DNA of 60,396 nt, filler included, from Basidiobolus ranarum (GCA_040143965.1; 4 parts of 4 records of this genome joined end to end with filler, not necessarily neighbours in it); one strand, 5' to 3'; counted from the first letter of the whole stretch, positions 15,060-45,392 are shown. Notes: generated by a model not told the origin, from the letters alone. Program-made: numbers and translations.

Positions 15060-15159
15060 NNNNNNNNNNNNNNNNNNNNNNNNNNNNNNNNNNNNNNNNN
15101 NNNTTAATTAATTAANNNNNNNNNNNNNNNNNNNNNNNNNNNNNNNNNNNNNNNNNNNN
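15060..15159. other. Artificial contig linker (N-run with TTAATTAATTAA)
   Basis: 100-nt N44-TTAATTAATTAA-N44 spacer; a gene is truncated at its edge. Confidence 0.98.
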
Positions 15160-15481
15160 CTATATAGTCATATATAGCTTTGTACTTAGTTATCTTATAA
15201 TTCACTAAGATATTATCAGTTATTCTCAATTGGAATATAGTTGGAATATTTTTACCAACTTAGAAGTTCTCAGATATATAGATTTTTCAAACTTGTGCCA
15301 GAAGCCCCAAACATTGCACACATGTTCTTGGGACCTTCCTTAGCACATCCTACAAGTTATTTTGCCTAAACTTTGACAAAACTATCAACATCAACTTTTA
15401 ACTCAATAAATCAATAAGAGAAAATCACCAATTCCTCTAATTCTCCAAACCATTTCCATCAGGCTCCCAAATACTTTAACA
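15160..15481 (+). mobile_element. Ty1/copia-family LTR copy (5'-truncated by contig start)
   Basis: Aligns by eye along its length with 43259-43580 and 15545-15863; ends ...TTTAACA. Confidence 0.85.
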
Positions 15482-15529
15482 AAAACACAATCATAAGTTG
15501 CCTCTAGTATTCAAAGGCTACCCCCATTA

Positions 15530-15863
15530 TGTTAAGATCCTCCAACAGTCATATATAACTTAGTATTTAGATATGGTATATCTCACTAAGATATTACCCA
15601 TTATTCCCAATTGGGATTTAATTGCAATATGTTCACCAACTTAGAAGTTCTGAGGTATATGGATTACTTGAAACTTGTGCAAGAAGCCCCAAACTTTGGA
15701 CTTATGTTCCTGGGCCCTTACTCAACACATACCTCATGTCAGTTTGCTTGTATCTTGACAAAACTATAAATGTCAACTTTCCACTCAATGCAGCTATAAA
15801 TGAAAGCCACCAATTTCTCAATTTTTCCAAGCCACTTCCAACAGGCTCCCAGATACTTCAACA
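15530..15863 (+). mobile_element. Second LTR copy (solo-LTR-like, TG...CA)
   Basis: Begins TGTTAAG, ends CTTCAACA, same family as the neighbours. No matching target-site duplication seen. Confidence 0.8.
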
Positions 15864-15909
15864 CACAAATCTTTAAGCAAAAGCTACCAATTCCAGTAGG
15901 TTCCCAAAA

Positions 15910-16393
15910 TACTATAACATTTAGCAGCTTGGCTCTTTAACATTAAATTTGCAATGGATCCTTGACATTCAGACATATTGTATTTAAACCTCTTTGTTCT
16001 TGCATCACCTGGAGCTAAACTATAGCATCAGATGGCTTTGCCTTATTTTTCTCTCCTACAACAGCATCTATCCCAGAGTCCTTTTTTCTTATTGCATTAT
16101 TTTCATTTTAATATTTCAAACTTGACAATTGTTTCCATTAAATTTTCCATAGGAGGGAAAATGCAGCAGAAATTTGTGAAGTAAACAATACAGAGAGTGC
16201 AAGCTCAGGGCTCATAACCTGATAAAGTATCTTGGTAGGTTATTGGAAGTAGTTTGGAGAACTAGAAGAATTAATGGACTTCACCTATTGATAGAGTGAG
16301 TTGAAAGTTGAAATTGATTGTTTTGTCAACATGTTAGTAAACAAATGTAATGAGTGTGTTAAACAAGGTCCTAGGAATTTGTGTTCAAGGTTT
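15910..16393 (-). mobile_element. Inverted copia fragment: LTR 3' half (16220-16393), PBS (16206-16219), decayed gag 5' end
   Basis: Minus strand reads ...TACTTTATCA|GGTTATGAGCCCTG, followed by sequence homologous to 43600-43870. Confidence 0.8.
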
Positions 16394-16394
16394 A

Positions 16395-16740
16395 ATTTTA
16401 TGTTCCAGAGTCAAAACTGACAAGAAGGTTTGGAAAGCCTTGGAAGATGCCTACCAAATAAGTTCTGCTTCTAACAAGTTGCTTCCAAGTATACAGTTCT
16501 TTAGCTTAAAACTGAAGCCAGGAAAAGACAAAAAATCAATAATAAAAGGGTTACTATTTTTGTGGATGATATGGAATGCATTGGAGTACCTACTACTGAT
16601 CTGGATATCCTAGTCACAGTTCTGAATAGCCTGCTAGATGAGCTCAGAGCCTAGTAGTGGCTCAAGAATCCAGAACTGATAATTTGACCTTGAATTATGT
16701 ATATAGCAGACTCTTGAATGAAGATGTACGCAAATTAGGA
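16395..16740 (+). mobile_element. Decayed copia gag (UBN2-like) fragment
   Basis: CSRVKTDKKVWKALEDAYQISSASNKL and VTVLNSL; homologous to 43850-44180. Confidence 0.7.
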
Positions 16741-17152
16741 TTAGTTTAGGCTATGCTGGCAGCTCAAAACTTGTGGTTAAGGTTGCAATTGTAGAAATCA
16801 GTTGGTATGCCTCTAGCAACCTCTCCATCTTTCAAATGTGGATTTCATTTCAATATGACTCTTTTATGAGTAGTGTGGTAATCATTCATTTGGTGGAATT
16901 TTTTTACTCGGTTTATTTGATTAGTGGATTTCCTTGACTTCACGGTGGTGTACAATATAACTAGTAACCATGGTTAAGATGAAGCTAACTTGTTTAATAA
17001 ATATCTTGAATTATTAATTGTTGAATAACGACATAGTTAGGGATGGAGAAGAGATAATTCTTTTAATGAATATTTACACGTAGGGTCGGCATGCCAACAT
17101 TAGGGTTATTTGAAAATTTACAACTGGTGAATTATAGGTAAGATTTTATGAA

Positions 17153-17332
17153 TTATTTTGTATATTGATTGTTTTGTTGGTCAACCATTGATTGTAGTAA
17201 GATATAACGGTAGCGAATGGCTAATGCTCGATGGTATTCAACTCGAAGTTCCTTAGCAGTGGTTTGGTAATACGGAGATGGATCGGTGGTGGCGCTCATA
17301 GTAGATAGGGCAGGTTTTTCACAAAGAGTCAT
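17153..17332 (-). CDS. YH-YRY microprotein A (59 aa; 48 aa if started at ATG 17299)
   Basis: ...TTAKELRVEYHRALAIRYRYILLQSMVDQQNNQYTK*. TATA-like element at about 17386-17395. Motif shared with three other small ORFs. Confidence 0.75.
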   Translation of the reverse strand: MTLCEKPALSTMSATTDPSPYYQTTAKELRVEYHRALAIRYRYILLQSMVDQQNNQYTK

Positions 17333-18492
17333 TGGTAACGTCAGGCAAATTGAATGATAAAGATGGAGCTTTGTGGAAACCACTAAATATATATTGTTCT
17401 GGCTGTTAGATCCTGATATGTTGATGGCGCAGGGACCTCTTACGTTAGACCAAAACAATCATCATGACATCATTTTGAAATGAACCATCACATTACATCA
17501 TAGCGCATTGGTCTGCTTACTAACCATTTATGGGGAGCTGCATTGGCCAACTAACAAGTCCAGATTCAGTATCAGGTCAACTAGGATTCCAATTGAAATG
17601 GATGGGTTCAGCCTAAACCGGGCAATTTCTCCAAATTATTCGATTTTCTTTTATTTCTATTCATTCCGATCTAGCTCAATTGAAAACGGATGACGATTAA
17701 CTTGGTTTAGGGTCAGTTGGTTCGACAATGACAAGGGTTACGATTCTATTGGTGGTTTCAGGAACGGATCTGTGATCGTTACTCATCAACAGTTTCTTTT
17801 TCTTTAATTCTTTCACGAATTCCACCGCTTCATCAATAGAGCCGATCTAAACTTATTTCAAACTCCACACCTTTCTGAATCCATTCGATGAGCCTAATGA
17901 GTGTCTATCTTTACGAATATGAGAGGTAGACAGTATATACATATTTAGCTACGCTTCTACAAAACTTTCTAATCAGCATGCTTTGAGGTACAATTGAATA
18001 AGAGATAGCAAGCATACACTACCATCCTAAGTGTCAAGTCCCCTCACATTCTGACATTGCTTACTTTGTAACGTCATTTCAGTATTCTGAACCATTTGAT
18101 ATATCTTATTTGGGAGAGGATCAGGGGTAGCGAGAGGGATGCGGATTGAAACTGTCTTAATATTACTCGATGTATGATACTTCGATTTATACCTATTAGG
18201 TAAGTGTCTTTTCATGGTCACGATAAGCAAAGTTGCAAATCATGGTTTTAAATGGATAAAAGGATATTCCCTTAGTGGAGGCATTGGTACAGATTGTTTA
18301 AGGGGAGTTTCCGGTCTTTATGGGTGGCGAATCACCTTCTCTTTATTAAAAGAAAGTAATTTCACCTTTCGGAGGTTCAGGTAAAATAAGATGCTTAGAA
18401 GTATATATTAGGTCTTGGCAGGATTGAAACGAAATGGTGTATTCAATGGGAGGGTTGAGCAGGTGGTTCAATTATTAGGATTAGTTTGTGGC

Positions 18493-19558
18493 TTATATGG
18501 ACTCCTGTACATTGGGAATATCAAGTCCTTTTAACCCAGTCACCGCCGAACTCCATGAGTCAAACTGTTGTATAGGGGTGATATTGCTCCATCCATGTTT
18601 CCAAATTATCACATACACTTCAGACAAACTTGTAGTGAATCCCCACACTAAACTCAGCCAGAATGAAACAGATGCGCTCATAAATGTGTGGACAGCCATG
18701 AGAGGAAAGTTGTAAAAGGTAGGGTTGGATAGTTGGATGACACGACTGACCACCCCCGGCCCCCAGCAAATAAAGAAAGTAATCACATAAAGTACATAAC
18801 GGCCTACCATCTTTTCGTATGGGTGGTGTATCTTTCTTTCCGCATATGCAGCAGTATTTCGAATTCTGCACAAATGCAGTAAAATCAGACTCAGAAAGCA
18901 TAGGCACATAAAAGATGAAAGCAATAGCCAGCCATAAAAGATTCCCATTCGAAGACCGTCAGACAGAATCCAACACCTGTATAGCGCTTATTTAGCAAAT
19001 TCCTCAAAGTGGATGTTTGTCGTGCTGCACTTACCATGGGCCGACGTTGCCAATGTAATTCAATTGAGCAACCAGCGGAATCATCAAAACCATTGGAATC
19101 CCAAAAGAGAAGAGCATAAATTTGCAAGTGATATTGCGGCGCAGGAACAACAAGCTCTCTGGTGGAAGCAGTATTAGATAGCTAGGTACCAATTGGTTAG
19201 AATCCAAGGCCAGAGTCATTATATGATAAATGGCTTACACATTAAGGCAAATACAAGCACCCCAAAGCGAGTTGACCAAGTTGAAAAAAGTCATGTGCAA
19301 GCCTTGAAAAATACATATCACTTTGATTTCTTTCCAATTCAGTAAGGAATAGGTCAACCCGCCAGAGCTTAGAATAGCATTGTTGATGGAAAGTAATAAT
19401 AATGAGGTGTGGTGGACTTTAATCGAGTCAGAGGCGTTGATAAGAAAGCGTCGATATATCAAGTAATAATTGACTATCACAAACATACACCCAAAAAGCG
19501 ATAAAGCGTTCGATATCCTGTTCAGGTTATCAAGAACTTCGCTATTAGTTAACGCCAT
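18493..19558 (-). CDS. 7TM G-protein-coupled receptor, cAMP-receptor-like (Dicty CAR/Crl, Git3-like); exons 19558-19239, 19181-19035, 18976-18493 (316 aa)
   Basis: Two short GT-AG introns (57 and 58 nt) join the split ORFs in frame. LSLFGC in TM1, CIFQG in TM3, GPWCWI in ECL2, YVITFFICWGP in TM6; seven hydrophobic segments. Confidence 0.85.
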
Positions 19559-20947
19559 TGTATCATGTATTGTTAGTGCTTCACAGCTCAATAAGGGTCA
19601 GAGCTATGGACGACGAAGTTAACTAATTTTCTGGTTGAATAATATGGGGATAGAGAGAAGTAATGCGTTGACTGAGACCAAAAGAAAAGTACTTTCCGAG
19701 CAGTCCCACATAATATATAATTGGAATCCCGAGCACTTTGGGGGTTGAATTCAGGTGTATGAGACAAGCGCTATTTAAATTGGAGTTGCACACAGTGAAC
19801 CCCAAGAACTATTTCCTTTTACTGGTTAGTAGCTACTACTGGTTATATATATGCTGCGAACTCTCATCCACTAACTGTTTCAATATTTTAGATATTCTTC
19901 ATTAGCATTTCTTGATTTGGAATTGGCCACGTTTCTATTTTTACAAATCTGTATCCAGACTGAATCCATACAATCAACATTCAATTGTAGTTGACTAACT
20001 GTTAGTGCTATCACAATTTCTAGGCCAGTGATTGGTGGGAATACAGAGTATGTCGCAAACTACCGAAGGTTGCACCAAGTTGTTTTTTGGGGAGAGACAC
20101 TCATTTTGGAATGATAGAAGCTTACGTGATTACCTTATTACCTTCGAAAAAGGGTTAGGGTTCAAGAAATCCCATGCAATACGAACTTGGTATTGTTCTG
20201 ATTTTCCAAGAACCATTGATTAGTCATCATCGATAGATGTGGTAAAACCATGATTTGTGATGCTTCTTGTTGTATCCGCAACTTCAAAGACGCCAAGGAT
20301 GTACTCTACATACAGCAAGAATCGTTTATAAGCGTGATACTTATAATTCATTTGGAGTGTGGCAAATGCAGCTCCAGCATTCGTGATAATGTGGTAATCT
20401 CTCTACAATCAATCGTTGCGCAGTTCCGCCTAAAACGGCGACTCTAGGCCAAACTTTAATGAGCTGGTAGGTTGGTGCTTTTTGACTGCCTGAAACCATG
20501 CTTATTATGATGCATCCGTTAAATCCTTCATATTTACGAATACTTTATCATACCATTGACTTCTCACCACTATCTGAAGCGTCTATCACGTGCTCAAAGA
20601 TTTGACATCTGTTAACAAAAATCCAAGAACTATTGTTCCTTCGACCTCTGATTGGCTACTACCTGCTTGATGTTACAGCAGCTCTCAACTATGGATTTTC
20701 ACGAGTCAACAATACAACTATGGCTGCCGGACCAAACTCTCGATCATTTGTATGGCCTTAGCAAGAAACGAGTCATGGAATCAAGTCAAGCCATCAAATG
20801 TCTACTAAAGGACTGTTGCCCAAATGGAGTTGCTATATCATTAAGAAGCGGTGCTTGCAATCTTACATATAAATATACCTCAGTCACAAACATAAATCCT
20901 GAAAACTACAATAACTTCTCGATATCTTGGAAGTGTCTTTAACTACA

Positions 20948-21730
20948 ATGAGGTTTCAATTTGCAACCCTGGTGGCTCTTTTAGTTTTTTATTCTCAAAG
21001 CGTCCTTGCTCAAGTTCCAACAATCACTTTCTCTGACGATACTGCTATTTTCACTCCAACTGCGACTGTGACTTCTTCAGAGACAGATCCCACGCCGATA
21101 GCGACTATAACCAAAACTAGTTCAGTAATCTCTACGGAAACTATTGCTTCACCATCAGCTACCGATACCCTTACAGTTACGGAGACGTTAGTGTCCACTG
21201 AACCTATTACATCTACTGGAGCTGCTACCAACACCGGAGCCGTTACTCCTACAAAGTCTGTTACACCCATCGCTTCCGAGACTGTTACCTCTACCAGTAC
21301 AGTAGTTCCTACGGAGATAGTTACCTCTACTACCCCCGAGACTGCTATATCTACTGGCACAGTGGCTCCTACCGAGACTGTTACTGCTACCCGTATAGAA
21401 ACCCCTACTGAAACCGTTACCTCTACTGACACAATAGTTCCCATCGAGACTCCCACTCCTATAGGATCCGTTGCATCCACGACCTCTGAGATTATTACTT
21501 CCACCAGTATAGTAATTCCTACTGAAACTGTTACACCCACTGCCTCTGAGACTATTCCCTCTACTAGAACAGTAAACCCTACCAAAACTAGCACTGATTC
21601 AGTAGTCCCTACCGAAATCACCTGCACCTCCATAACAGTAACGGCTACGGTTACCAAAACCGTTACAGCTAGTGATTGTCCTTCCGTCCCAACCAACACG
21701 GATTGTGTGTCTGGAACTTTTGAATGTTAA
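20948..21730 (+). CDS. Secreted Thr/Ser/Pro-rich mucin-like protein with a C-terminal CBM19-like chitin-binding module interrupted by a stop codon
   Basis: Signal peptide MRFQFATLVALLVFYSQSVLA and degenerate (V/I)PTETVTST repeats. CVSGTFEC* continues in frame as GVNQQEFNWCVYGKWIIASWVDGTVCKPYGTAIICDWPEHIG* to 21859. Confidence 0.8.
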   Translation: MRFQFATLVALLVFYSQSVLAQVPTITFSDDTAIFTPTATVTSSETDPTPIATITKTSSVISTETIASPSATDTLTVTETLVSTEPITSTGAATNTGAVTPTKSVTPIASETVTSTSTVVPTEIVTSTTPETAISTGTVAPTETVTATRIETPTETVTSTDTIVPIETPTPIGSVASTTSEIITSTSIVIPTETVTPTASETIPSTRTVNPTKTSTDSVVPTEITCTSITVTATVTKTVTASDCPSVPTNTDCVSGTFEC

Positions 21731-22588
21731 GGTGTAAACCAACAGGAGTTCAATTGGTGCGTCTATGGTAAGTGGATAATAGCGTCATGGGTTGATGGTA
21801 CCGTATGTAAACCATATGGTACTGCGATCATTTGTGACTGGCCAGAGCATATTGGATAATCAATGAAATGAATGGAATTCCCCCTTGAAATACCATATTC
21901 ATATAACACTTTTCAATCAATTCACAATTCCCCCTTCTCTTTTTCTGACATGAAATCAATCGAATGTTACTTTGATTTCTTATAAATTCTTTTGGGTTTA
22001 ACTTGCAAATATACGATATAGTTCATAATACTCTTACTTTGGTTTATATATACTGCGGTTAGATCATGAAACCCCTCGATTTAGACGGCTGATATGATTG
22101 AGGTGTTCAGAACTCTAGAATTAACCCATTATCATCGTGTTTAATATTCTATATACCATGCTTAAATCAAGAATTTTGAGATAAATATCATCCGAGTTAC
22201 TTGCAATGACACGATATACGCAGATTGGTGTAGGGGGAAGTGACGTTAATTACATATCATCATGGTTAGTTCACACCTTACCGTTTAACCAAGAACTGAG
22301 ATTCCTTTAGGGAATTATTAAAACCATAAATCAAATATATATTTACTGTTAGTCACTTCAATATAGAATAGGCTCTAGGTACAATTCGATGAATTTCAAT
22401 GGATTAGAATATACCCCATTTTTCGAGAATTAATCATGGAAAATTTACAAAATCAATTGGAATTTAGAAATCATTGGATATGAAAGTGAGAATTGGGAAA
22501 ATATATATAGACTTTACAATTAACTGAACAACATATTAGGATTCGAAGAATTGTTTGTACATGTTAGCAAGTGCCAGTTAATCCGATC

Positions 22589-22822
22589 CTAATTGCTTTG
22601 GTCAATGGGGTGGTTTTCCGCACATGAGGTGGTCTGTGCCAAGACGTATAGTAAGCAGTACCGGTATTGAATGGCTAAACCCTGGTGATATTCTTTGATA
22701 GCCAGTTTCATGCTTTTCTCTCTCATACTTGAAGAATTCGGATGTTGAGGATTGAAGTTGGAAGAATTCTTAATTTCGCAAGTAGTAGTGCTCATGGATT
22801 CAGAGGTCATTCTACTACTCAT
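22589..22822 (-). CDS. YH-YRY microprotein B (up to 77 aa; several in-frame ATGs)
   Basis: ...MKLAIKEYHQGLAIQYRYCLLYVLAQTTSCAENHPIDQSN*. TATAAATA at about 22891-22898 on the minus strand. Confidence 0.75.
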   Translation of the reverse strand: MSSRMTSESMSTTTCEIKNSSNFNPQHPNSSSMREKSMKLAIKEYHQGLAIQYRYCLLYVLAQTTSCAENHPIDQSN

Positions 22823-22984
22823 CAGCTGCTTTGGTGTTAGACAGATGGTGGGGATTGAGTTCGAAAAAAAAAGAACAACCGACAGTTTATTATTTATACG
22901 TTCCAGGCAAACTTGGTGTAATTCAAACGAGTTTATAGCCATGGAAAAATATCGACCCCAACTTCCTTTAACCTTAAGAACTTC

Positions 22985-23315
22985 ATGACCTCATCGTGCA
23001 TCCTTCATTAGTCAAATGATAGGAGTTTCAATGACCGAATCCTGATTTCTCAGCAAATTGAACTAACCGGATATGTACATTCCTAGGAAATGGGTCTAGA
23101 TCTTTCAATCGAAACTGCCAATAATAGTTAGATTCTCCCACTAGTGATGTCATGATTGTGGAGATATAGGGAATTTTTGGTGCAAAACCTAAATTTAGGT
23201 TAGTCTGGAGTTGTTTCACCCAGTAACTCACGGGAGATACCAAGAGCAAAAGTTGATCAAGCCACACAAAACAAGCTGTGGTCAGTATGATGTCATAGAG
23301 AAGTTGTGTATAAAA
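22985..23315. promoter_or_regulatory. Divergent promoter between microproteins B and C with CRE/ATF-like sites
   Basis: ATGACCTCAT 22985-22994, GTGATGTCAT 23144-23153, ATGATGTCAT 23287-23296; TATA boxes on both sides. Confidence 0.5.
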
Positions 23316-23372
23316 CCAAGTGGATGATTCAACATGGAATTATTCAAGATTACTGACACTACTATTAAAACC

Positions 23373-23498
23373 ATGGCTTCGTTTAACTCATCGGATGATC
23401 TCCATAGCACCGACGCCTATCTCTACCATCAGGAGCTGGCTTTACACTACCGGTACATTATTCTCCGCCTTATGCTTCAACAAGTCCAGGAGTCTTAG
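23373..23498 (+). CDS. YH-YRY microprotein C (41 aa), not in the ORF track
   Basis: MASFNSSDDLHSTDAYLYHQELALHYRYIILRLMLQQVQES*. Strong context ACCATGG. TATAAAA at 23309-23315. Confidence 0.78.
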   Translation: MASFNSSDDLHSTDAYLYHQELALHYRYIILRLMLQQVQES

Positions 23499-23999
23499 AA
23501 GACACATATAATTACATCTAATAACCTAGCCGAGACATTCCGCTGCACTGTCAAATACTCCTGTAATATAATACTATAAATACCTTTGCAATACGGGTAG
23601 ATTGCAGAATAATAACATATAAATTTCATTTAACATTATGCTACCTTAAAACTGTTCCATTATAAAGTGACTTGCGATATGAACGCTAAATTGAAATACA
23701 CAATTTCTACAATTCTATGATTGATATGACAAGGCTATGACCACTTTTCATTACCATTTGAAAGCATTTCCTGCGATCCTTATGAGCATCGGCCGATCGA
23801 ACCATTTTCATCGGGAGCGTCAACGAATTTGGATGCAAATAAGGAACATAATATCCCTCGATTAAGGATTTGATCATCATACGATATGAGTAGGATTTCT
23901 TATAAAAGCGACACGTTCAATAATGGCAAGTTTACTTACTCATTCTCATTCTCCCTATCACTCACAGAATTCCAACCGATTGATTATATTGTTTTTCAC

Positions 24000-24143
24000 A
24001 TGGATCAAATATACACTACACCAGAAGCTTGCACCGAAAAGGCCAAGAACGCAAGCACCTTGGTAATTCAAGAATATCATCAAGCCCTGTGCCTCCGATA
24101 TAGATATTTCCTACTAAAGTGTATGGTTGCTGACTCTACATAG
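24000..24143 (+). CDS. YH-YRY microprotein D (47 aa)
   Basis: MDQIYTTPEACTEKAKNASTLVIQEYHQALCLRYRYFLLKCMVADST*. Context CACATGG. TATAAAA at 23901-23907. Confidence 0.78.
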   Translation: MDQIYTTPEACTEKAKNASTLVIQEYHQALCLRYRYFLLKCMVADST

Positions 24144-25569
24144 CACTCTCAATAATCGGAGCATATATCATAGTGACCGATGTAAATATATGGACTTTGT
24201 GGTATCAAAGTGAAATTAATTCATAATAAACCCCCTGTTAAATAAACCTTACTCGACCAGTAAAATACTTTCAATTGACGGAAGATAAGTCATCATGAAA
24301 TGAAAGCCGAGTTCTGGGGGAAAGTGAGCAAATATGCTGTAGTGGTTTTTGACCTTTGAATCACATCAATATGTGGAATTCCTATTGCTTGCTTGTAAAC
24401 TTTATTGGAGCAAGTAGTTGATTGCCAACCATTGCTAAGGTGCATGGTTAACTAATAAAATGAGAAATCTACTAATTGCCATTGATGTTAATTCGATGGT
24501 AGTGATGAAGCATTATTTCTATTCAAGATATGATATTCTTTATACCATGTAGTTTATACCTCTAGCAATTCTCCCCCATATTAATTGCGTATTTTCATCA
24601 ACATTTCAACCGATATCAAATCATCAAAAACTCACCATAACCTACAAACACTAATTGGATGCTTATTAGTAGTGTTACAAATTGATGTTGATTTAGAAAT
24701 ACTTGAATAGCTTGGTCTTCATGTTCTATCTAAGTAGTCTTATATTAATTGAAAATTGAGATTCAAGCTTCATACTACAGAGTTCAAGCCCATTTCACCC
24801 TCCCAAACAGTCACCAAAGATGAGGAATAGTGATTTGGAGGGAGAATATTATGTGAATTTTCATCAAGATAAATATATCCATGATAAATTAACTAAAAAT
24901 AGCGCGATTAATGATTGGTAGGTGTCGCTTTCTACTCTAAAATACATATGAATTGATATATGTTTAAAATAGGATCAACCAATCATAACCCTAGATTCCA
25001 GTGATTTCACTCACTGATAAATCGAGTAAAGTACACGTGTACTTGAAGTTTAAACCTTCATTTGATTCCTAGAATGGATAATTCATTGAAAAAATATCCA
25101 TCATTTGGGTTTATGTTTAACGATATAATATACGTATATATATTGAATCGAGAAAGTCTTGGTAACAATGAAATGTAAAGAGCTAAACGGGAGGAAGAGG
25201 ATTGAAAACAAAGCCAAGAATGAATGTTGCATGAGAAGAGGGTGAAGATTATATACTTTTTAAAGAAGAAAATATCGGACATCATAATCACAAACTGAAG
25301 CCCTCTCAATTTTCTATGGACCGACGTCGATTATTTCATTTCATTTTGTTTCGCTGCGCTGCGTTGCATGGCGTGGCGTTTTTTGTCTGCATGTTGAAGT
25401 GGTGCGGTTAACGGGAATTCATATGGTAGATGATATGTTAAAATGACCAAAGTAACTATAAAAAGTAGGTTGATGTCAAGGTTGGGTAGTAGAGTCGAGT
25501 AAGGGAAATTTCATTAATAATGTTAATTGGAATAAGGAAGAAACTAGAAAGATAAGGATGAATGTTCTT

Positions 25570-26316
25570 TCATAGCGTTATTAAACTTGATGTTTCTGCG
25601 GCCTCTTGGATCAACTTTGGTTCCAGACCAAGTACCTCCCGCCAAGGTTTGGAAGTTTGTCGGTCCGTTAACGGATTCTGGAGTAAATGACAACTTTGGG
25701 AGATTGCCACTCCCGCAAGTACTTTCGATGAATACAGTAAACACAACGGACTTCGTACAAAATCGCTGACAATTCTGGTCGCTAACAATGAGTGCTTTTG
25801 CGTGGCTCCACACCGCTTCAATGCCTCAAAGAGATATCGATGAGGTAAATCCAAGTGCAGATCGAAACAGAGCGTTTCCAAAAGAATCTCTTCATGGTAA
25901 TAAATCGTCTCTTTCCACCGTCTTATATTTTCACTCAAATTCTCTGTCTTGTGACGATCGGCGGATTTCGAAGATACCATAGTACACTCTTGAAACAATC
26001 GAGATATTTGTTTCGCTATTTCCTCAGGGTAGTAGCTGAGAAAGTCTTCTTCCTCTTTAATGGCCACAAATAGACAAGTTCCGGCCAGATCATATTGATG
26101 GAATACCCGGAAGCTCTGTCGCATGTAAAATCGATGAAAATATAGCCCAGCTGCATATATTGTTGTCGGTAAAAGTTGTAGATTATGCCCAACTTTGACA
26201 ATAAAGTTGACACCTTTCTGTCGTAACCGTTGCTCCTTTTCCCAGGTAGAACCATCACGTATTGAAGGAGTATGCGCCAAATCGTCTTGAGTGAATGTCC
26301 AATCGTTAAGCTCCAT
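25570..26316 (-). CDS. Transcriptional cyclin (cyclin K/T, Pch1-like), intronless
   Basis: WTFTQDDLAHTPSIRDG...E..LRQKGVNFI...TIYAAGLYFHRFYMRQSF...LFVAIKEEE...EEILLETLCFDL; first ATG at 26316. Confidence 0.88.
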   Translation of the reverse strand: MELNDWTFTQDDLAHTPSIRDGSTWEKEQRLRQKGVNFIVKVGHNLQLLPTTIYAAGLYFHRFYMRQSFRVFHQYDLAGTCLFVAIKEEEDFLSYYPEEIAKQISRLFQECTMVSSKSADRHKTENLSENIRRWKETIYYHEEILLETLCFDLHLDLPHRYLFEALKRCGATQKHSLLATRIVSDFVRSPLCLLYSSKVLAGVAISQSCHLLQNPLTDRQTSKPWREVLGLEPKLIQEAAETSSLITL

Positions 26317-27757
26317 GTTAAACGATAAAAACAACCGAGGGAAAAATAACAGAAAGTATAAAGAGAGGGAAGGGGAGAGATAACTAAGTCTAGGGTGAAA
26401 ATCACTGAAATATTCAAAAAGCCAAGTCTATATTCTCTTGGAAAGAAAGTGGGTTATACTCAAGGAAGTATTTTTGGAAAGTTGGTTTGATTTTTTCAGC
26501 AGTTATAGCGTTTTGAATGTGGTTTAAACTGCTTGTTATAGAACTGCTACAAGCTGTGTGCTTTTTCTGGTTTTTTCTTTTTTTTGGAATAAAAAGAAAG
26601 TGGTTGAAAGGAAAACTAAACGAATAAAAAACGTAAGAAAGCTTATAATACAATAAACTTACACTAGACTTCTGATGCTAGAAAGTTGACCACTGGCTTA
26701 CTTTAGAGCTGGATACAACAAGTGAGTGTGTGTTGGTCGTTATTTGACTCGGTAAAATAATAATATAAAAGACAAAGAAAGACGGGACAATATACAAAAA
26801 GAAAGCAATTTGAACTGAGGGAATAGACTAAGCAACTCAACTGCAAAGAAAGGAAAACTACAAACAAAAAGTCGAAGGAAGTGAAAGGGTTTTGAAATCA
26901 AGGTAAATTTATCGGCAAAAAGTTCAATATTAGTCGAAAAAGTTCAACCAGCAAGTAAACTTGAGTAAGGTGGATGTGGTTGAGAGAAGGTAAATATCGG
27001 AATATTCGACCGAAACTAGACCAAATCTTACTTATCAAAAATCCAAGCTTCGCATGCAAAACGTTAGAAACGTTTTGATGTTTTGTATTCCTCTTCTGGG
27101 ATAAAAGAGTAGTCGAGACGCACAATTAAGATTGTCTACTTCTCTATGAAAGGTTAAGTGTATGATTATTGACTTTCTTCCCGAAAAGAGTTTCGTTCAG
27201 TTAAACCTGAGTCAAGAGAAACAGACGAAAGTTAAATGATAAACTGATATTGGTTCCTTGGATAATGAAAATTGTAAAAGAAAACTATGATCGTGAAAGA
27301 ATATATTATCACATTTAATGATTTGTCGATAATACTCTACCAAACAGAGCCCAATAATGTATTATCAGCAGCAAATCGTCATCGTTGAAATGTCGGCAGA
27401 ACAGCTGAATTTTTCCAGATGGAGCGTAACAGGATCCAGACATATTCATAGCACAAACAAATCAATAGGATTGTGATAAGAGTGTAAGGAATACTCTGAA
27501 GCAATTGGACACGGCTTGCCTCAATGTCTCATAAAGTCTATAAATGGAGAGATGAATACAATATTTAACCAATAATAACACTTGTAAATATCGAGAATTA
27601 ATTTTGGAGAGGCTATCGTTTCTTGTGGTTAGCCCTTCATTGATTCGATCACTATTTTTATTAATTTAGTTAATTAAAACTAGCATTGACGGTTGGTGGG
27701 TAAAGTTATGCAATCAATGAAAAATATGGAATTCAATAATTTGTCTACATCGCAACC

Positions 27758-27802
27758 ATCTATTGGCCGAAGTGTCTGATCTATGGGCCGAAGTGTCTGA
27801 TC
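27758..27802. repeat. 21-bp tandem duplication
   Basis: ATCTATTGGCCGAAGTGTCTG ATCTATGGGCCGAAGTGTCTG ATC. Confidence 0.8.
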
Positions 27803-29056
27803 ACAATCGGCCAGCACAACAGGCCGAATTTGGATCGACAAACAGCAGCCAAAGAAGTCTCCGCGGTAATTACCTCCAGTAATTTATCCGATCGCCCTCA
27901 ATGGTACAGCTACTAGTTCCAATTTTTATTGGTTGGTCCTACTTGAAATTCAAGGATAATCTCTGTTTTGGGTTTAATCTATCATTATGGTAAGAATTCC
28001 GATAGTCACGAAACCTTATGTATAGCATGTCCTACACATTCAGTTATCGTTCATTGATTCATATACAATCGTTGTATCGCAGGCCCAGTATTTTTAATAC
28101 CTATGATTCCCAATATACCAGAATTGGTATACTATCTTTGATAAGGCTTCCATTATCCGATTGTAGATTGTATTAGGGCTATTATGAAATAGCTATATAT
28201 CTACTTGAGATTTTGTAATTGTGAGGCTACATACGAGATTCTAAACGGTGATTACATATATATGTATAATAAAATAGTATTATAAAGCCAACTTTGAAGA
28301 AACACAAGTCTGAATGGCTCATCAACCACATTAACATTATGTACAACTTCCGGATTGATCATTATCACAGATGGAGGGGCCAAATCAGGTTGTAAATAAC
28401 CCGAACACAAAGGTCAAGTTAATCTTTTCTTACCAATTATCAAGTTGCGATTGATAACCTAGTTGATAGCGCGGATGCTCCATATCGTTAGGTTATTGAA
28501 GGCGACGAGATCGATTCACACCAAGAGCCTTTTTTCATTTATTTGATTTGACCGAATTCCCGGATTCCGCCCAATATCCGTAGCACATGGGACCCTTGGA
28601 AAGTGACGCTGCAAACCCTGATAATCTCATGGGGTCTTACTGGTTTATCTTATTAAAATTTTTCATTGGTTCATATCGATATCTTTTTTGAAAGTTGTCC
28701 AATCAAAGACAAATGTTTCATCCTTTTGCCGAATACTCCACTCCAATTTAGAATGTGTTGCATGGTGGGGCTTGAGCGACTGGGGTCGGAGGTGAGTGAT
28801 GGACCTCAGTTGCACAAAGGAAAAAAAGTTTGGCAGAGTGCCAGTTGTATAAATATGGGACGATGGTTGCTGGATCGGTTTAGACTTTGCAAATTCCACC
28901 TTGCAACGCAGTCACTTTCGCCTTACCTTACCAGTCTATTATTATAGATTCAAAATTCAATTTATATTATACATTCATATCTTGTAGATAAAAAATCAAA
29001 AATTACACTCATCAAGAGCATCTGTTAATCCGCACATCTCTAAAGAAACTGCTACC

Positions 29057-30185
29057 ATGTCCGCTGAACACACCACTGAAATTATCAACAAGAACCTCCT
29101 TGTGACTCCTGAGCAGCACATTGTCCCAATGTCCCCTAGACTTCCTTGTCCACCGGTTACCGCTCCCTCTTCTTGTGAACAAGACTCCGTGATTGCTACT
29201 TTGTTCCTTAAGGATGGATCCAGCTTCCAAGGTATCTCTTTCGGTGCTGAAACCCATTCCATCTCGGGAGAATGCGTATTTCAAACCGGTAAGTTCCCCA
29301 TCTGTCATTTTAATTTTACCATCTTTGACCTTAGTGTTGACATGTTTATCAATCATAGGTATGGTCGGGTATCCCGAGTCTTTGACTGATCCTTCATACC
29401 GTGGACAAATCCTCGTCGTTACCTATCCCTTGATTGGTAACTATGGTGTTCCTTCTCGCGAAGTTGTTGAAGAACACTTGAACAATTTACCCAAGTACTT
29501 TGAATCCAATGAGATCCACGTTGCTGGTCTTATCGTTGGCCAATACACCGAGGAATATTCTCACTATCTTGCTACCTCTTCTTTGGGCGATTGGTTAAAG
29601 GAGAACGACGTTCCTGCCATTTATGGTATCGACACCCGTGCCTTAACCAAGAAGATCCGTCAGCAAGGTGTTTTGTTAGGAAAAATGCTATTCCCCAAGT
29701 CAGTCGTTGAAAGAGATGCTGCTTTGGGAATTCAAGTACCTACCGGAGAATTGGAAGAGCCTTGGATGAAAGACTACCAAAATGTTGATTGGGTTGATCC
29801 TAATGACCGTAACTTAGTCGCTGAAGTCTCAACCAAGAAACTTCAACTTTATGTTCCTCAAGAGGCTACTGCTATCAAGAAGGCTGATGGAAAAACCATT
29901 CGTATTCTTGCTCTTGATGTTGGTATGAAGTATAACCAAATTCGTTGCTTCGTCAACCGTGGTGTTGAATTGATGGTTGCTCCATGGGATTATGATTTCC
30001 TTGCTGATACCGAGTATGATGGTCTTTTCATCTCCAACGGTCCCGGTGATCCAACCATGGTTAAAGAGACCATTGATCGTCTCAGCGTTTATTTGAAAAA
30101 CCCTCGTACCCCAGTCTTCGGTATTTGTTTAGGTCACCAGCTTACTGCATTGGCTTCCGGTGCCAAAACCATTAAGATGAAGTAT
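29057..30185 (+). CDS. URA2: URA2/CAD-type multifunctional pyrimidine synthesis protein, N-terminal glutaminase (CPSase small chain) part; intron 29289-29358; truncated by contig end
   Basis: FQTG|MVGYPESLTDPSYRGQIL, FESNEIHVAGL, YSHYLATSSLG, GIDTRALTK, SNGPGDP, FGICLGHQ. No mitochondrial presequence, which favours URA2 over CPA1/arg-2. Confidence 0.88.
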
Positions 30186-30285
30186 NNNNNNNNNNNNNNN
30201 NNNNNNNNNNNNNNNNNNNNNNNNNNNNNTTAATTAATTAANNNNNNNNNNNNNNNNNNNNNNNNNNNNNNNNNNNNNNNNNNNN
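30186..30285. other. Artificial contig linker
   Basis: 100-nt N/TTAATTAATTAA spacer. Confidence 0.98.
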
Positions 30286-30948
30286 AAGACTTGCTCGCTT
30301 TCAACCTCCGTATTAAAATGCTTGATCAGGTCTGCCAAATCATTGGAGTCCTTCTCTGCTTTCTTGCAGGATGATTTTACAGGATCAAGAGCGGATGGTT
30401 TTGCAGCTTTCGGCAACCCGCTTCGAAAACACAAAGAGAGTCTTATGAATCTAACTATAGATATTGACGCAGAATATGAATGCGGTTGGGCTTGGAGTGT
30501 ACCAGCAATCGGGTCACTAAAAGAGTTTAAGAAGCTATATGAAGTTCAAACAGCGGGACCAGTACTCTTTCCCGAAATCGAAATCAAATATCCCGGAAAT
30601 AAGAGGTCTCCACACCCGGTGTCGTTCTACAAAGATCTTCTTCCTTCTTCTCTGGAGAGAATAATTTTCACTTCAATGTCGCCCTCAACTCAGGCTCATA
30701 TATTGGCGTTGGGAATTTTCGCGTCTGATCTAAAAAGCGATACTTGTCCGGAGCTTGAGCTTGTGAAATTAACTACTGATGAATGGGCTACTTGCGAAGG
30801 GCCTGAAGAAAGAGATACTGAAGAAGAAGAATTTATGCATGAAGGATTTAGAGCGGCAGGTGTTAGGTTTAAAAGCGCTCCTTATGTTCGTGCTGGTTAC
30901 GATCCATGGGGCGACGAAGCAATGAGAGAATATCAGTCGTCGCTTTGA
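30286..30948 (+). CDS. 3' part of a hypothetical protein (LRR-like; resembles C-termini of fungal F-box-type proteins)
   Basis: Open frame from the contig start, about 220 codons, with HKESLMNLTID, IGSLKEFKKL and LLPSSLERI. The family assignment is an impression only. Confidence 0.55.
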   Translation, partial: KTCSLSTSVLKCLIRSAKSLESFSAFLQDDFTGSRADGFAAFGNPLRKHKESLMNLTIDIDAEYECGWAWSVPAIGSLKEFKKLYEVQTAGPVLFPEIEIKYPGNKRSPHPVSFYKDLLPSSLERIIFTSMSPSTQAHILALGIFASDLKSDTCPELELVKLTTDEWATCEGPEERDTEEEEFMHEGFRAAGVRFKSAPYVRAGYDPWGDEAMREYQSSL

Positions 30949-32129
30949 CCGTCAAGTGAGACGCGCAAAAAGGGAAATGGGTTATTAATGATAGGTCGCT
31001 AATCTTATATCTATTATATATAGTTATTTTATTCATATGTACAATTGCAATCTTAGTCATATGGCTAATCATTTTCATCTGATCATGCCTTACTGATGTG
31101 GCGTGGGCTATCGTTGTTTTTTTACCATCAATTTAGACCGAAAAAAGTACAAGTTTAGTTACTCTGCTGATATGGTTAATCATATTTGGCCAATATGCGA
31201 AGCATACTTTGCAGTTTGTGATGTGTAACAAACCTCCTGGAAGAATTAACTAGAACCCTTTGTGATTAGCTATATAGGTGCTGCTAAACTGGACACTAAG
31301 TATTAATACATAGATTTCATTGGCATACATTTATATGCTTTAACAATTACAGTCAGGTGTAAACGTAAGTTTGTAAGAAAGAGTGGAATTGGACTGAATG
31401 ATGCTAGAACTCCTTGAATGTATCTTATACCATTAATCCCATCTAGAGAAGGATAAGTAATTTAAAGCAACTAGTTAATGAGCTTGACTAGTGCCAGTTA
31501 CTGTAAATATGGTTGGAATATCCTAAGGTAAATCTTCAGAATGACCAGAGTTCTATCAAACCAAAACTAAGAGCTATAATAATCCGCAGGTAGTGTTGGA
31601 GCAACCTCCATGCCGCCCTCAGTTTCTTGTGGCACTTCATACACTCCTGGTGTAATATTACTATCATCATTTGATCCAGAATTCACAACTTCACCCTGGT
31701 CAGTTTCTACACCACTACCTTCAACTTCAAAGCTAGGACCGGACTGAAACTGTACGTCAGAATTTTCTCAGCCGTTGAGCCGTTGACGTTCGTATTGTTC
31801 AAGTTACTATGTGTACACTCATTTATATATATTAGCAAAGACCAGTATATCGAGCTTACAGCACTGAGTTATTGACCAAGTCGTATCAACTATTTATTTA
31901 TTAACATGGAGACTGATTTTATACAAAATAACTTGTCTTATGCTTATTCAAGTATATTACTCAACGAATGCACACAGGAATGGCACAACTTCACGTAGAA
32001 ACTATTTTCATTGTCGGTAGTAAAAGCGAATCTGAATGTAAATGAATTTGCTTAACACTTCAAATTATGAGATTTTATCAATGTAACATTATATAGAAAT
32101 AGCATACAGTTATGCCTATGTAGGAAGTC

Positions 32130-32460
32130 TGGTTGTAGATTAGGTTACGTCGTTAGTCTCGGTAGACATCTAGGCATTCTGAGTCCGAGTAGATTTGTGA
32201 GCTTCGTGAGTCTCGGTAGGTATGTGAGTTTCCTGAGCCTTTACAGATCTGGGAGTGGCATTAGTCTCATACTTGCAAGCATCCTTAGTTTCAGTAGGCT
32301 TCTGAGCATTTTGAGCTCAGGGGTTACGTTATTACAGGACAATACCTTCCTTAGAAGCTCCGTTGCAGGACAGTTGTATGCTTTTGAACATGCGTTACCG
32401 GACAATACCATGATTTCAAGCTGCGTTACATGATAATACCATGTTTACAAGCTGCATACC
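32130..32460 (-). pseudogene. Decayed repetitive coding sequence (Thr/Glu/His-rich repeats)
   Basis: Minus frame AQNAQKPTETKDA...AQETHIPTETHEAHKSTRTQNA*MSTETND with internal stops; imperfect GACAATACC-containing repeats. Confidence 0.3.
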
Positions 32461-32967
32461 AAGTAACACCATATTTATACACACTAAAACCACTATATAA
32501 CTGGTATCGAAATGGTAGATTTTTTGATATTATATCGTCAGCTTTTACAACAAATACTGCTGCATTGCATCTAAATTCAATTCTTTGTTGATTTCTGCCA
32601 ATGATTCAATCTCTTTCACTAAACAAGAAAATGTGAATTGAGATTAGATACATTTTGTTACTTTTGATTATAGCATCATGTATTTTACTTATGTTTGAAT
32701 AAGGTATTACTTATCTGGCCCATATATGCCCAGGACTCAACATTATGCAGAATCAATATTTGGAGAATAAAAGCAAAAATTAAACAAGAAAAGAAAGAAA
32801 TATCTGAACTCACATCAAGCATCACTAAATACTTGGTCCCAGACTTAATCTGAGTGTCGACTCTTAGTTAATTGGGCAAGAAAGTTTACTAAGTGCTTAT
32901 GTTCGTGAATACATATAGAAAGTAGCTATTCTTTGAAGACATTGACAGTTTTTTTTCTTTAATCCTA

Positions 32968-34266
32968 TTACGCAATTGGGTCAACAGGATTGATTCTATC
33001 AACAATTAAGGGATCTTTGGGAGTGAACGGTAGAATAGGCAGATTCTGCGAAGCGATATCAAAGGCGGCCGTAAGTGTATCTCGAGAATAACCGCTGATA
33101 GACGCTTTGTAGCCAATATCTCCGGGGGTGTTTTGATCGAAGAAAATCAGGAAGTGGATATCCCCTTGTCCAATGTTCTCAATATGATGTGGATAAGCCT
33201 TGGGAATAAAGTATACATCTCCAGTCTGGAGTAGATATGTATCTAAATCTCCACCAGGGTTCATGACCGTCATCCGTGCACTACCTTGTGCAACATAACC
33301 CATTTCGGCCGTGGTAGGGTGCCAATGCGGTTCTCGCATCCCTTTATCGGTAACTCGTACTGAGTACATGGAAATATCGTTCAATATGGGCCAGAATTGC
33401 TTACGTGCAGTTTTCGCCGACCCAGCAAGTGATGATATTGGCGCTGCCATAGCCTCAATGTCGAACTTGTGGGGATTTCCCCATCGTGCCTCAGTAGGGA
33501 TGGATGCAACAGACTGGCGATGACCAATCACTGTGTCATGTGTTGTTCGGTTAAATGGTTGGAAGGATTTTGCTGGCAGGTTGTAGGTGTTACCTAACAC
33601 TGCGTCTGACATGGCTCCAAATGCACCAGATAAACCAAAATCTTCAGGCTTTTCATGAGTAAAAGCAAGAATAACTTCCGCATCCTCCTCTCCGATGTTT
33701 TCGAGGTGGTGTAGAGCTCCCGAGGGCACATAAAACATCTGGCCAACACTTACTGTGAATGTGCTAAATTTGTTTTCATTTTCAAATACGGTAACTAGTA
33801 ATTGACCGCGTAGACAGTAGGCGAGCTCGTCACTATTGGCATGCCAATGAGGCTCGCGCACACTCCCAGGCTTCAAAAGAAGATGGCGTACTGACAACCC
33901 TTTAAGAATGGGAAAATCATCCACAGTTAGAGACAAAATTCTCCCAGCGTCTGATTGAAATTTTGGCTTTTGTGATAACAAGGACACAACATGAGATGAA
34001 CTCACAATATTCCTGTTGTTATACATTCTTCGGAATCCTTTACTAGGGAAAGCATTTCTATAGGGAACTTTGGTTAAGTTTTCTTTTCTAGTTTGGTGCT
34101 TTCCAAGGCATTCACCATCACTATTTGTAACACCAGCGCACTCCTGAGGAGAATTCTGAGCCAAGTCTGCTGCAATGGAGTTTTTGATAACACCATGTGT
34201 ACTGGCACCCTGAGCCACGATGACTGATGTAAAGGCCGTTAAAGCGAGAGATATAGAAAGTTTCAT
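32968..34266 (-). CDS. Secreted oxalate-decarboxylase-like bicupin
   Basis: Two cupin metal sites, REPHWHANSDE...HHLEN and REPHWHPTTAE...HHIEN. Signal peptide MKLSISLALTAFTSVIVAQG. TATA at about 34303-34310 favours ATG 34266. Intronless. Confidence 0.88.
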   Translation of the reverse strand: MKLSISLALTAFTSVIVAQGASTHGVIKNSIAADLAQNSPQECAGVTNSDGECLGKHQTRKENLTKVPYRNAFPSKGFRRMYNNRNIVSSSHVVSLLSQKPKFQSDAGRILSLTVDDFPILKGLSVRHLLLKPGSVREPHWHANSDELAYCLRGQLLVTVFENENKFSTFTVSVGQMFYVPSGALHHLENIGEEDAEVILAFTHEKPEDFGLSGAFGAMSDAVLGNTYNLPAKSFQPFNRTTHDTVIGHRQSVASIPTEARWGNPHKFDIEAMAAPISSLAGSAKTARKQFWPILNDISMYSVRVTDKGMREPHWHPTTAEMGYVAQGSARMTVMNPGGDLDTYLLQTGDVYFIPKAYPHHIENIGQGDIHFLIFFDQNTPGDIGYKASISGYSRDTLTAAFDIASQNLPILPFTPKDPLIVDRINPVDPIA

Positions 34267-36323
34267 TATGGAAGATAGAGTGGAGAACATGATAGAGTCG
34301 AGTTTATATAGGCATTTGCTTCTGGCTTTGGAGTACACATAGGAAAGTCGCGCTATACTGGTCGACAGCGCTATTTTTGTATATCCAACTTAAAATGATT
34401 TTCAAAGAAACGTCACATATTGCTCGTCATCGTCAATGGTCCAGTTATGGCAACTCTGATCACCCACATTTGTTTGTTTGCCCTTATCACACACAACCAT
34501 TAGGTGGATTTCGGGGTATGATGTATACACTGATTTGCACTTTGAATGATCAGATATGTAAAAATAAGATTCTCCATTCCTAATCATTAGGTGTTATATG
34601 GGGAAATCCTCATATATGGCCAATCAAGAGATATCGGTGATTATAAATAGTGGCTAGTAGTTACGGAAGGAGAGCGACCGACTCCATGTATCGTGACAGT
34701 TTATGTAACAATAAATCTAACCACTGAGTTATAATCCTTTTTCCCCCCTTAGCTTCCCCTCGCTCATTAGAGCACCCCTAGGTGGCCGGCTTCGCTCCCC
34801 CATTTTTCGCTCGGGTTGGCCCCCGCTTTGTCCGGCTCAATGATTGCTTTGAAGCAAAGGGAACCTTACCACCCAGTTACGCCACATCATATCTAACTAT
34901 CCTCTGATAACTGCACTAATTTATCAATATTAGTGGGAGCCTCCCTGTAGAAAGCGCTGGTACTTTCTATCCAAGATTGAGTTAATGTGATGTTGGCTGT
35001 AGTCTGCTTATTTTATGTGTATCAAGAAAAATTAGCAAATACATGACCCGATACAAGTTCTCTGTGCCAAAAGCTAATCACGTGCAACTTCCTTGCTAGG
35101 TATCACGGTTTAGGTTTTCGGTCACCTCTGTAAAATAGTGAGTCGTTCCTTGTGTGATTGCTTTACTAGCCTAATTACATTCCACTAGATAAACAGGGAG
35201 CAACATCAAAAGAATGATAATTACATGAAACCAACTCTGCAGTTAGTATTATTTCACCAAGGATATGCACCTACTAACATTATTCTTGAACTTCTCACTA
35301 AGCCGGGCGCACATTAAATCGGTTAGCACTGGGCGCTCTGTGAGCCTAAGGTTTCGAAAGCAGCATATGGCGCTCCTATTACTGTCGCTTCAGATCAATG
35401 AGACATGTGAGAAGCAATTATAACAAGAATAGGTACTTGAATTTGTGAAAGGCGTCATTCACTGATAATCTGTACACATATTTGGCTAGTTTATAGTTAA
35501 ATTTTGGAATACTATGGTTAAAAAATATACCATTAAACTGGGCTAAACTGAATGCTACTTAATTGAAGAACTGAACTGAAGGCAACGCCTGAGAAGGAAA
35601 TCGGATAGAATAACGTGACTGATCAATGTTCGGTGATTGGCCCTCAACTGGAATGATTCAGCTTAGCAAACTAGAATCAGCTTTGATAGAAAGTCAGGTT
35701 CTTTGGAATCATTTGCGCTTGGCACGACACCTTCTGCTCCAATAGTTCGCTGACTGCCAAAAAGTAGCTTGAATGTATGATGACAACTTGGATGGAATGT
35801 ACTAATGTTATTCAATACATTCATAGCATCCATGCCTCTCTAAAGCGAGAACAAGCTCGCAAGATACACAAGGAACGTGGAATCAGCAACACAGACAAAG
35901 ATACTTCTTGAATCACTGACTCCAGAAGCAAGCATGCTCATTTGCTGGATGTCGATCAGATTGGGATTGTCGCTGTTCTAGCTGACTTCTGTGGAGTTTT
36001 CTCTCTCATATCAGTATGTAAAGACTTCTAGAGGCAACTCTCGTTGATCAACTCCATCCAATTACCTAGACTCATACTGGAATACTTGTACACTACTTGT
36101 TGAAAGCGATCTATCCATAATAATACTGCGGATTGAAACGGAAAACCATTACAATCAGTTCACTTTATAGCTTGGCTATACTCTTTGTGACCCTATCTCG
36201 TACGTAACACAAAATAGCATGGCGACGTCTGAACTCCCAGCTTTTCTCACCTGATATTTCATATAAAACCTCAATAAGGCACTTCCCTACTTGCATAAAA
36301 ACTTAACCCACACATTCTTAACT

Positions 36324-40100: not shown

Positions 40101-40169
40101 AAGTAAAAAGGGAATTAAAAACAAATGCGAATTAATTGCTATGAAGATATTACTAAAATATTGGCTAAA

Positions 40170-45292: not shown

Positions 45293-45392
45293 NNNNNNNN
45301 NNNNNNNNNNNNNNNNNNNNNNNNNNNNNNNNNNNNTTAATTAATTAANNNNNNNNNNNNNNNNNNNNNNNNNNNNNNNNNNNNNNNNNNNN
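45293..45392. other. Artificial contig linker
   Basis: 100-nt N/TTAATTAATTAA spacer. Confidence 0.98.

Follow-up and report, generated by a model that had tools for sequence, protein, structure and literature searches.

MicroProteins such as Id and LITTLE ZIPPER are small single-domain proteins that titrate larger proteins, and the classical examples recognisably derive from the interaction domain of a larger protein. In the P/R loci of basidiomycetes, genes for peptide-pheromone precursors cluster with G protein-coupled receptor (GPCR) genes. Small genes are routinely missed by annotation. Here, we investigated four small open reading frames (ORFs), A to D, in DNA of Basidiobolus ranarum (GCA_040143965.1), a member of a little-studied fungal lineage (Zoopagomycota) that dwells in the vertebrate gut and can infect people. 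The stretch analysed (the window) is 60,396 bases long and consists of four pieces of ~15 kb with N spacers between them, marked by pairs of 44-N runs at 15060-15159, 30186-30285 and 45293-45392 (~15.1, 30.2 and 45.3 kb); linkage across pieces was not assumed. A–D encode short peptides with a common conserved core and, together with one annotated B. ranarum protein from another genome, appear to form an undescribed family, so far seen only in Basidiobolus.

An earlier note, made from the sequence alone, had placed the four ORFs on one contig, and its coordinates, strands and peptides proved correct. All four lie inside the second piece (15160-30185, 15,026 nt; the following piece, 30286-45292, has 15,007 nt). 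Gene A occupies 17153-17332 on the minus strand (59 aa, span including the stop codon), gene B 22589-22822 on the minus strand (77 aa from the ATG at 22822), gene C 23373-23498 on the plus strand (41 aa from the ATG at 23373) and gene D 24000-24143 on the plus strand (47 aa from the ATG at 24000). B and C were indeed arranged head to head, with 550 nt separating their ATGs. The strict motif YH..L[AC][ILV].YRY.[LI]L, searched in the six-frame translation of all 60,396 bases, gave four matches, all in A–D: the 14-residue core of A, YHRALAIRYRYILL (17195-17236, minus strand), and the conserved cores of B, YHQGLAIQYRYCLL (22649-22690, minus strand), C, YHQELALHYRYIIL (23424-23465, plus strand), and D, YHQALCLRYRYFLL (24075-24116, plus strand). 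In the alignment, Y, H, L, Y, R, Y and L of the core do not vary, and neither does a Leu 4-5 residues upstream. When the window was searched with a hidden Markov model of the family, as the note had proposed, only A–D stood out, scoring 50-58 bits against 7.5 bits for the next of 3188 six-frame segments; this test is circular, the profile having been built from the scored ORFs themselves. A non-circular test used as sole query the annotated relative (hereafter P0001), which retrieved A (E 6.8e-12), D (1.5e-5), B (2.8e-4) and C (4.5e-4) from the same 3188 segments, the next segment scoring 1.6. In A–D and P0001 alike, the protein has <120 aa and a Ser/Thr-rich head, and the core YH..L[ACS][IL].YRY.[LI]L falls in one predicted helix close to the C-terminus.

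The conservation lies in the peptide. Across the 14 core codons, synonymous divergence (pS) was 0.66-1.24 (saturated) and non-synonymous divergence (pN) 0.17-0.25 in all six pairs, values that are not an unbiased dN/dS estimate since the core alignment was picked on the peptide; across 12 flanking codons, pS and pN were both high and the gap between them was absent. The codons of the seven invariant residues differ as previously listed (Arg CGT/CGG/CGG/AGA, Leu TTA/TTA/CTG/CTG, Tyr TAC/TAT). No direct or inverted DNA repeat covers any of the ORFs, the heads could not be aligned, and the four loci have no 7-mer in common in either their 400 nt upstream or their 300 nt downstream, in keeping with the statement that N-termini and flanks do not align. 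The DNA of the core has thus diverged as far as possible while the peptide stayed, which bears out the proposal of selection on the peptide rather than a DNA repeat.

Codon usage was examined with a log-likelihood score trained on 3861 codons from ten long ORFs of the window. The claimed frame was the best of three for all four ORFs, and remained so in all four cases when only the variable N-terminal part was scored; pooled, these parts (118 codons) reached 0.184 per codon, compared with 0.02-0.23 for the training genes and -0.005 ± 0.077 for the null (761 segments). Ranked singly in the null, A fell in the upper 2%, and B, C and D in the upper 10.5%, 13.1% and 13.4%. The stop-to-stop frames holding the motif span 101 (A), 133 (B), 56 (C) and 89 (D) codons; shuffles of the contig gave on average 1.8 frames of at least 101 codons and 0.2 frames of at least 133 codons. 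In-frame ATGs further upstream would lengthen B to 117 aa (22942), C to 54 aa (23334) and D to 85 aa (23886), while A has no in-frame ATG upstream of 17332. The shorter forms of B and D are favoured as the true starts because the TATA box of each sits inside the upstream extension.

We then looked up the window's proteins by exact match in the public collection (NCBI/UniRef). Three of five larger proteins were present, each a single-ORF protein identical to a public gene model (a chitin-deacetylase-like protein of 377 aa, a membrane protein of 264 aa and a cyclin of 248 aa), so intronless genes do occur in the window. By contrast, none of eight start variants of A–D was found. As far as exact look-ups can tell, A–D are unannotated in an annotated genome, as the earlier note had held.

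To place the family more widely, a profile of A–D was scanned against 1.84 billion representative proteins of all lengths, which returned two matches at E ≤ 0.001: P0001 (58 aa, E 1.3e-6), the only relative, and an irrelevant low-complexity repeat protein. P0001 is KAK9702024.1, hypothetical protein K7432_011448 of B. ranarum (UniRef100_A0ABR2VTU3), encoded on a 9-kb contig; it is the sole member of its 90% cluster and the sole annotated member of the family, with no name, domain or function attached. Conservation in a second genome, for which the note had asked, thus comes from this one 58-aa protein. It is closest to A (46% identical over the full length, 69% in a 26-residue core block). The two agree in length (58 and 59 aa), in architecture, in their aligned Met starts and in a near-identical core and following stretch, IRYRYILLQSM.DQQ.N; they differ in the head, which is almost unrelated in sequence. 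Because the cyclins of the two genomes are 98% identical (243 of 248 residues between the window's cyclin and B. ranarum KAK9694907.1), either the head evolves extremely fast or P0001 may be a paralogue of A. Against B. meristosporus, the window's cyclin is identical at 229 of 248 residues (ORX83310.1) and its chitin-deacetylase-like protein at 226 of 256 (ORX95348.1). These identities place the window within the ranarum clade of Basidiobolus.

Other searches returned no further relative. A word-index search with A–D among proteins of 22-135 aa gave four candidates, none at E ≤ 1; this silence is weak evidence because P0001, found by the full scan, was missed. Among longer proteins sharing words with A–D (136-2000 aa), none of 787 candidates matched the profile at E ≤ 10. 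The earlier suggestion that the motif might be a detached piece of a known domain was not borne out, since no larger motif-bearing protein appeared among the 1.84 billion or the 787, both searches being of a kind that a motif-only match of ~25 bits would escape. A and P0001 as query returned only P0001 itself; 16 pattern matches in JGI metagenome contigs included none confirmed by tblastn; and the ESM Atlas gave no usable match (recognition 1321). In the PDB, searched by sequence, the full profile had no match and the core profile four at E 0.69-6.1, none credible. A Pfam-A scan of six ORF versions and P0001 at E ≤ 10 brought no family to its gathering threshold, the only matches being XPB_DRD for A (16 bits, cut-off 26, E 0.012) and DUF6470 for P0001 (13.5 bits, cut-off 28.9), each with one family member only. 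The motif accordingly belongs to no named family in Pfam, PDB sequences or the 1.84 billion proteins, as the note had supposed from recognition alone. Six 6-letter motif strings were absent from the searched literature, and the matches listed included neither Basidiobolus work on small proteins or pheromones nor a Basidiobolus expression study. Available Basidiobolus genomes are listed in a preprint (bioRxiv 10.1101/2025.03.31.646025).

Structure was predicted with AlphaFold2 on the five-sequence alignment. For A, a disordered Ser/Thr-rich head (residues 1-25, pLDDT 56) was followed by one helix at 26-58 (~33 residues) with a core pLDDT of 95-97; for D, the helix spanned 12-46 with a core pLDDT of 88-97. 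The head pLDDT was 52-61 in the two models, which agree with the variable Ser/Thr-rich leader and one conserved helix described before. The invariant residues are spread over all faces of a helical wheel (60, 100, 160, 240, 280, 320 and 340 degrees), and the core helix has a variability moment of 0.03, a hydrophobic moment of 0.10-0.23, a mean hydrophobicity of ~0 and a net charge of +1 to +2. A membrane-surface amphipathic helix or a transmembrane segment does not fit these moments or the ~0 mean hydrophobicity. Because conservation runs all round the helix and the amphipathic moment is nearly absent, the helix may be enclosed, by a partner or in a bundle. Prediction of a homodimer of A residues 24-59 scored 0.02 against a mark of 0.32, in a run made without controls, and counts neither for nor against self-association.

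These properties suggest a mechanism. Each product would consist of a fast-evolving, disordered, Ser/Thr-rich head of 15-40 residues, a helix of ~30 residues and a short polar tail. A core of 14-17 residues, (E)YHQALAIRYRYILLxxM, is under purifying selection on every face, and the helix would work by enclosure, either lodged deep in a groove on some conserved partner in the cell or bundled with other helices. The products may then serve as small adaptor or inhibitor subunits rather than as membrane-surface or secreted peptides, with the variable head as a spacer or a regulatory (phosphorylatable) tail. None of A–D has a CAAX box (C-termini YTK, QSN, QES and DST for A–D; RNS for P0001), and none has a hydrophobic N-terminus when judged by eye, without a predictor, so the reported lack of a CAAX box and a signal peptide stands; it is only this by-eye reading that suggests a cytosolic or nuclear location of the products.

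The promoters are consistent with separate transcription. As proposed, each ORF has its own TATA[AT]A[AT] box: TATATAT at 17387-17393 (minus strand, 61 nt before the ATG of A), TATAAAT at 22892-22898 (minus strand, 76 nt before that of B), TATAAAA at 23309-23315 (plus strand, 64 nt before that of C) and TATAAAA at 23901-23907 (plus strand, 99 nt before that of D). Such a box stands at -110 to -50 for ~5% of window positions, a background that is not a clean probability because the ATGs of B, C and D were chosen among alternatives. A near-palindromic 10-mer, ATGATGTCAT, occurs exactly in the promoters of A (17464-17473, minus strand, with a one-mismatch copy at 17492-17501, minus strand) and C (23287-23296, plus strand, with a one-mismatch copy at 23144-23153, plus strand), 5' of the TATA boxes and in gene orientation, and the promoter of B carries ATGAGGTCAT, with one mismatch (22985-22994, minus strand). 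Three sites in the window match the consensus ATGAKGTCAT, where 0.42 are expected, and these are the sites before A, B and C, in gene orientation; 2 of 100 shuffles reached three. One-mismatch matches number eight in the window versus 8.6 expected, and five of the eight lie in the promoters of A, B and C. Before D there is no copy, even with one mismatch allowed. The half-sites and spacing of the element resemble what we take to be a CRE/ATF-type bZIP site. Because all four genes have TATA promoters and three of the four carry the element, A–D may be switched on together under some condition; the ATGATGTCAT pattern is only a lead for such co-regulation.

Collectively, the data establish the family, the selection on it, its coding frame, the predicted helix and the narrow distribution, and A–D are probably real genes; their translation in vivo is inferred. 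That the helix is a single enclosed docking helix binding a conserved partner, with a variable and possibly phospho-regulated head, is put forward tentatively, as the likeliest mechanism but one that may well prove wrong. The docking-motif inhibitors and precursor peptides suggested in the note are guesses at this stage. For the combined statement, that A–D are real, separately transcribed, intronless genes of an undescribed family with an enclosed docking helix, we consider the balance to be even. Several points weigh against it. The helix prediction rests on five sequences, AlphaFold2 tends to turn short peptides into helices, and IRYRYIL, in which polar and apolar residues alternate, could instead form a strand. 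The conservation rests on the same number of sequences, from two close genomes, and P0001 may be either orthologue or paralogue of A. Taken singly, B, C and D reach only the upper 10-13% of the null in codon usage. The promoter element emerged post hoc, and D lacks it. Finally, the frames stay open for 42 (A), 56 (B) and 42 (D) codons 5' of the chosen ATGs, so B and D may start further upstream.

The alternative that survives best, unlikely as it is, holds that A–D encode precursor peptides exported without a signal peptide, with the 14-17-mer as the mature bioactive peptide or as a recognition (follower) sequence for an enzyme that would modify the variable Ser/Thr/Cys-rich head or the three invariant Tyr; the products may act as signals. 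Clustered, diverged copies, a hypervariable part beside an invariant one, and the invariance of three Tyr, one His and one Arg would suit such precursors, and Basidiobolus is rich in secondary metabolism. A seven-transmembrane (7TM) receptor gene of at least three coding pieces also lies between A and B (18493-19558, minus strand), its last coding piece matching Pfam Dicty_CAR (E 2.1e-5, 24.2 bits, cut-off 21); this Dicty_CAR-like GPCR, of cAMP-receptor type, is, however, not a Ste2- or Ste3-type pheromone receptor. Read directly, the peptides show no signal peptide, CAAX box, dibasic Kex2 site or repeated core, and the 15-kb contig holds no candidate for a peptide-modifying enzyme, protease or transporter, although the contig is short and distant enzymes are possible.

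A reading of the ORFs as terminal exons of larger genes, or as parts of longer proteins (B of 117 aa, D of at least 85 aa) in which the motif would be a C-terminal module, is quite unlikely. The open stretches upstream of A, B and D have shuffle probabilities of ~0.06, 0.02 and 0.06, and introns occur in the genome, as in the adjoining GPCR gene. Set against this, the TATA boxes fall inside the upstream extensions, A has no alternative upstream start, and P0001 is annotated as a 58-aa protein whose Met aligns with that of A. From the proposed start onwards, each N-terminal part has a score typical of coding sequence, and neither the 787 longer candidates nor the scan of 1.84 billion proteins yielded a longer protein carrying the motif.

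There is also a slim chance that A–D represent a new class of peptide regulators in this early-diverging fungal lineage, with their activity residing in the invariant aromatic/basic 17-mer. The products could be leaderless signals or Tyr-modified precursors with fast-changing heads, acting via a receptor such as the GPCR encoded amid the cluster; alternatively, they could be paralogous 'plug' helices that each shut off a conserved enzyme complex under stress, with the shared ATGATGTCAT element driving their expression.

Least probable is that A–D are decaying or non-functional (relics of a mobile element or a larger gene, or young ORFs that are untranslated or functionless), a view that has the very narrow distribution of the family and a copia gag fragment 540 nt from A behind it, but that is countered by four frames intact despite saturated synonymous sites, where relics of such age would carry stops or frameshifts, by the absence of further degenerate copies from the window, of repeat or long terminal repeat (LTR) structure around A–D and of any transposon protein with the motif among the 1.84 billion representatives, and by the position of the gag fragment on the other strand than A.

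The remainder of the contig is laid out as follows. At the left end of the second piece there is a tandem duplication of ~381 nt (15166-15863; two copies, 78-82% identical), followed by the gag fragment (16350-16613, plus strand; Pfam Retrotran_gag_2, E 2.5e-5, just below the cut-off), gene A and the 7TM gene. Next comes a gene for a Ser/Thr-rich repetitive secreted protein of 260 aa (20948-21730, plus strand), whose N-terminus is hydrophobic, whose C-terminus contains Cys and whose long repeats are rich in Thr, Ser, Pro and Val (DNA periods of 36 and 60 nt); it resembles proteins of the cell wall or of mucin type, matches no Pfam family, and its exact ORF is absent from the public protein collection. 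B, C and D then precede the cyclin gene (25570-26316, minus strand) and, at the end of the contig, the start of a carbamoyl-phosphate synthase gene (a fragment). An Rfam scan of the 15-kb contig gave no matches. A second copia gag fragment lies on another piece (43751-44221, plus strand; Retrotran_gag_2, E 8.1e-6, just below the cut-off); the two fragments are degraded LTR-retrotransposon remains. Elsewhere in the window, the genes at 1-1332 (minus strand) and 2293-4044 (plus strand) are divergently oriented paralogues, visibly similar over most of their length, the latter matching Pfam O-FucT (GDP-fucose protein O-fucosyltransferase) with E 3.7e-9.

The genome is annotated, yet none of the four genes was called, and only one relative was called, in a sister genome. 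The family illustrates cleanly how selection can preserve a peptide of ~17 residues while synonymous sites saturate. Should the helix dock on a conserved partner, the family would open a way into a regulatory interaction so far unknown; should a peptide be processed from it, this would be the first peptide-signal or RiPP-like family in the lineage. For now, A–D make up an orphan gene family that is well supported, useful for re-annotation and not yet surprising to a specialist.

Comparison with known systems narrows what kind of family this is. LYR-motif proteins came into consideration through the resemblance of L..YRY to their signature. LYR models describe an L-Y-R/K tripeptide and a downstream Phe in a three-helix protein; the Complex1_LYR family gave no match at E ≤ 10, and AlphaFold2 predicts one helix, not three. 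Lipopeptide (a-factor-type) pheromone precursors are set aside by the absence of a CAAX box in A–D and P0001, and alpha-factor-type and Kex2-processed precursors (KEPs, dikaritin RiPPs) by the absence, judged by eye, of a hydrophobic N-terminus, KR/RR sites and internal repeats. The core likewise fits none of the eIF4E-binding YxxxxL-phi, PIP box, APIM, LxxLL, MIM1, RVxF, PTS1 and PTS2 motifs, compared by eye with consensus patterns. The best PDB match was to COP9 signalosome subunit 2 (9is6_B, residues 209-221, KLKQLYHKALAIK; E 0.69, 12 bits, not significant). TPR-like helices of PCI proteins have a Y..AL.I signature that is similar to L.I.EYHQALAI, the first half of the motif; in contrast, the RYRYxLL half is unmatched, and A–D have a single helix rather than a repeat pair. 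All that the match conveys is that this first half has the look of an ordinary Y..AL.I helix.

The P/R-type pheromone clusters resemble this locus in having short, diverged, intronless genes on both strands around a 7TM gene. A–D differ in that they have no CAAX box, signal peptide or Kex2 repeats, that the receptor is Dicty_CAR-like and that the conserved part is a long helix, not a short C-terminal lipopeptide. The layout thus loosely recalls pheromone-precursor clusters, and A–D are not members of them. With microProteins, A–D share their size, a single predicted helix of an interaction type, the lack of any other domain and the presence of several paralogues; they differ in that a larger protein with the A–D motif was not found (1.84 billion proteins; 787 candidates). 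Derivation from a larger protein was set aside for want of a larger homologue, in searches that a ~25-bit motif-only match would escape. By analogy, the family would work most like a microprotein regulator, yet it is not a member of that class. As a sequence family A–D are new, but they belong to a general kind already known, that of one-helix microproteins restricted to a taxon.

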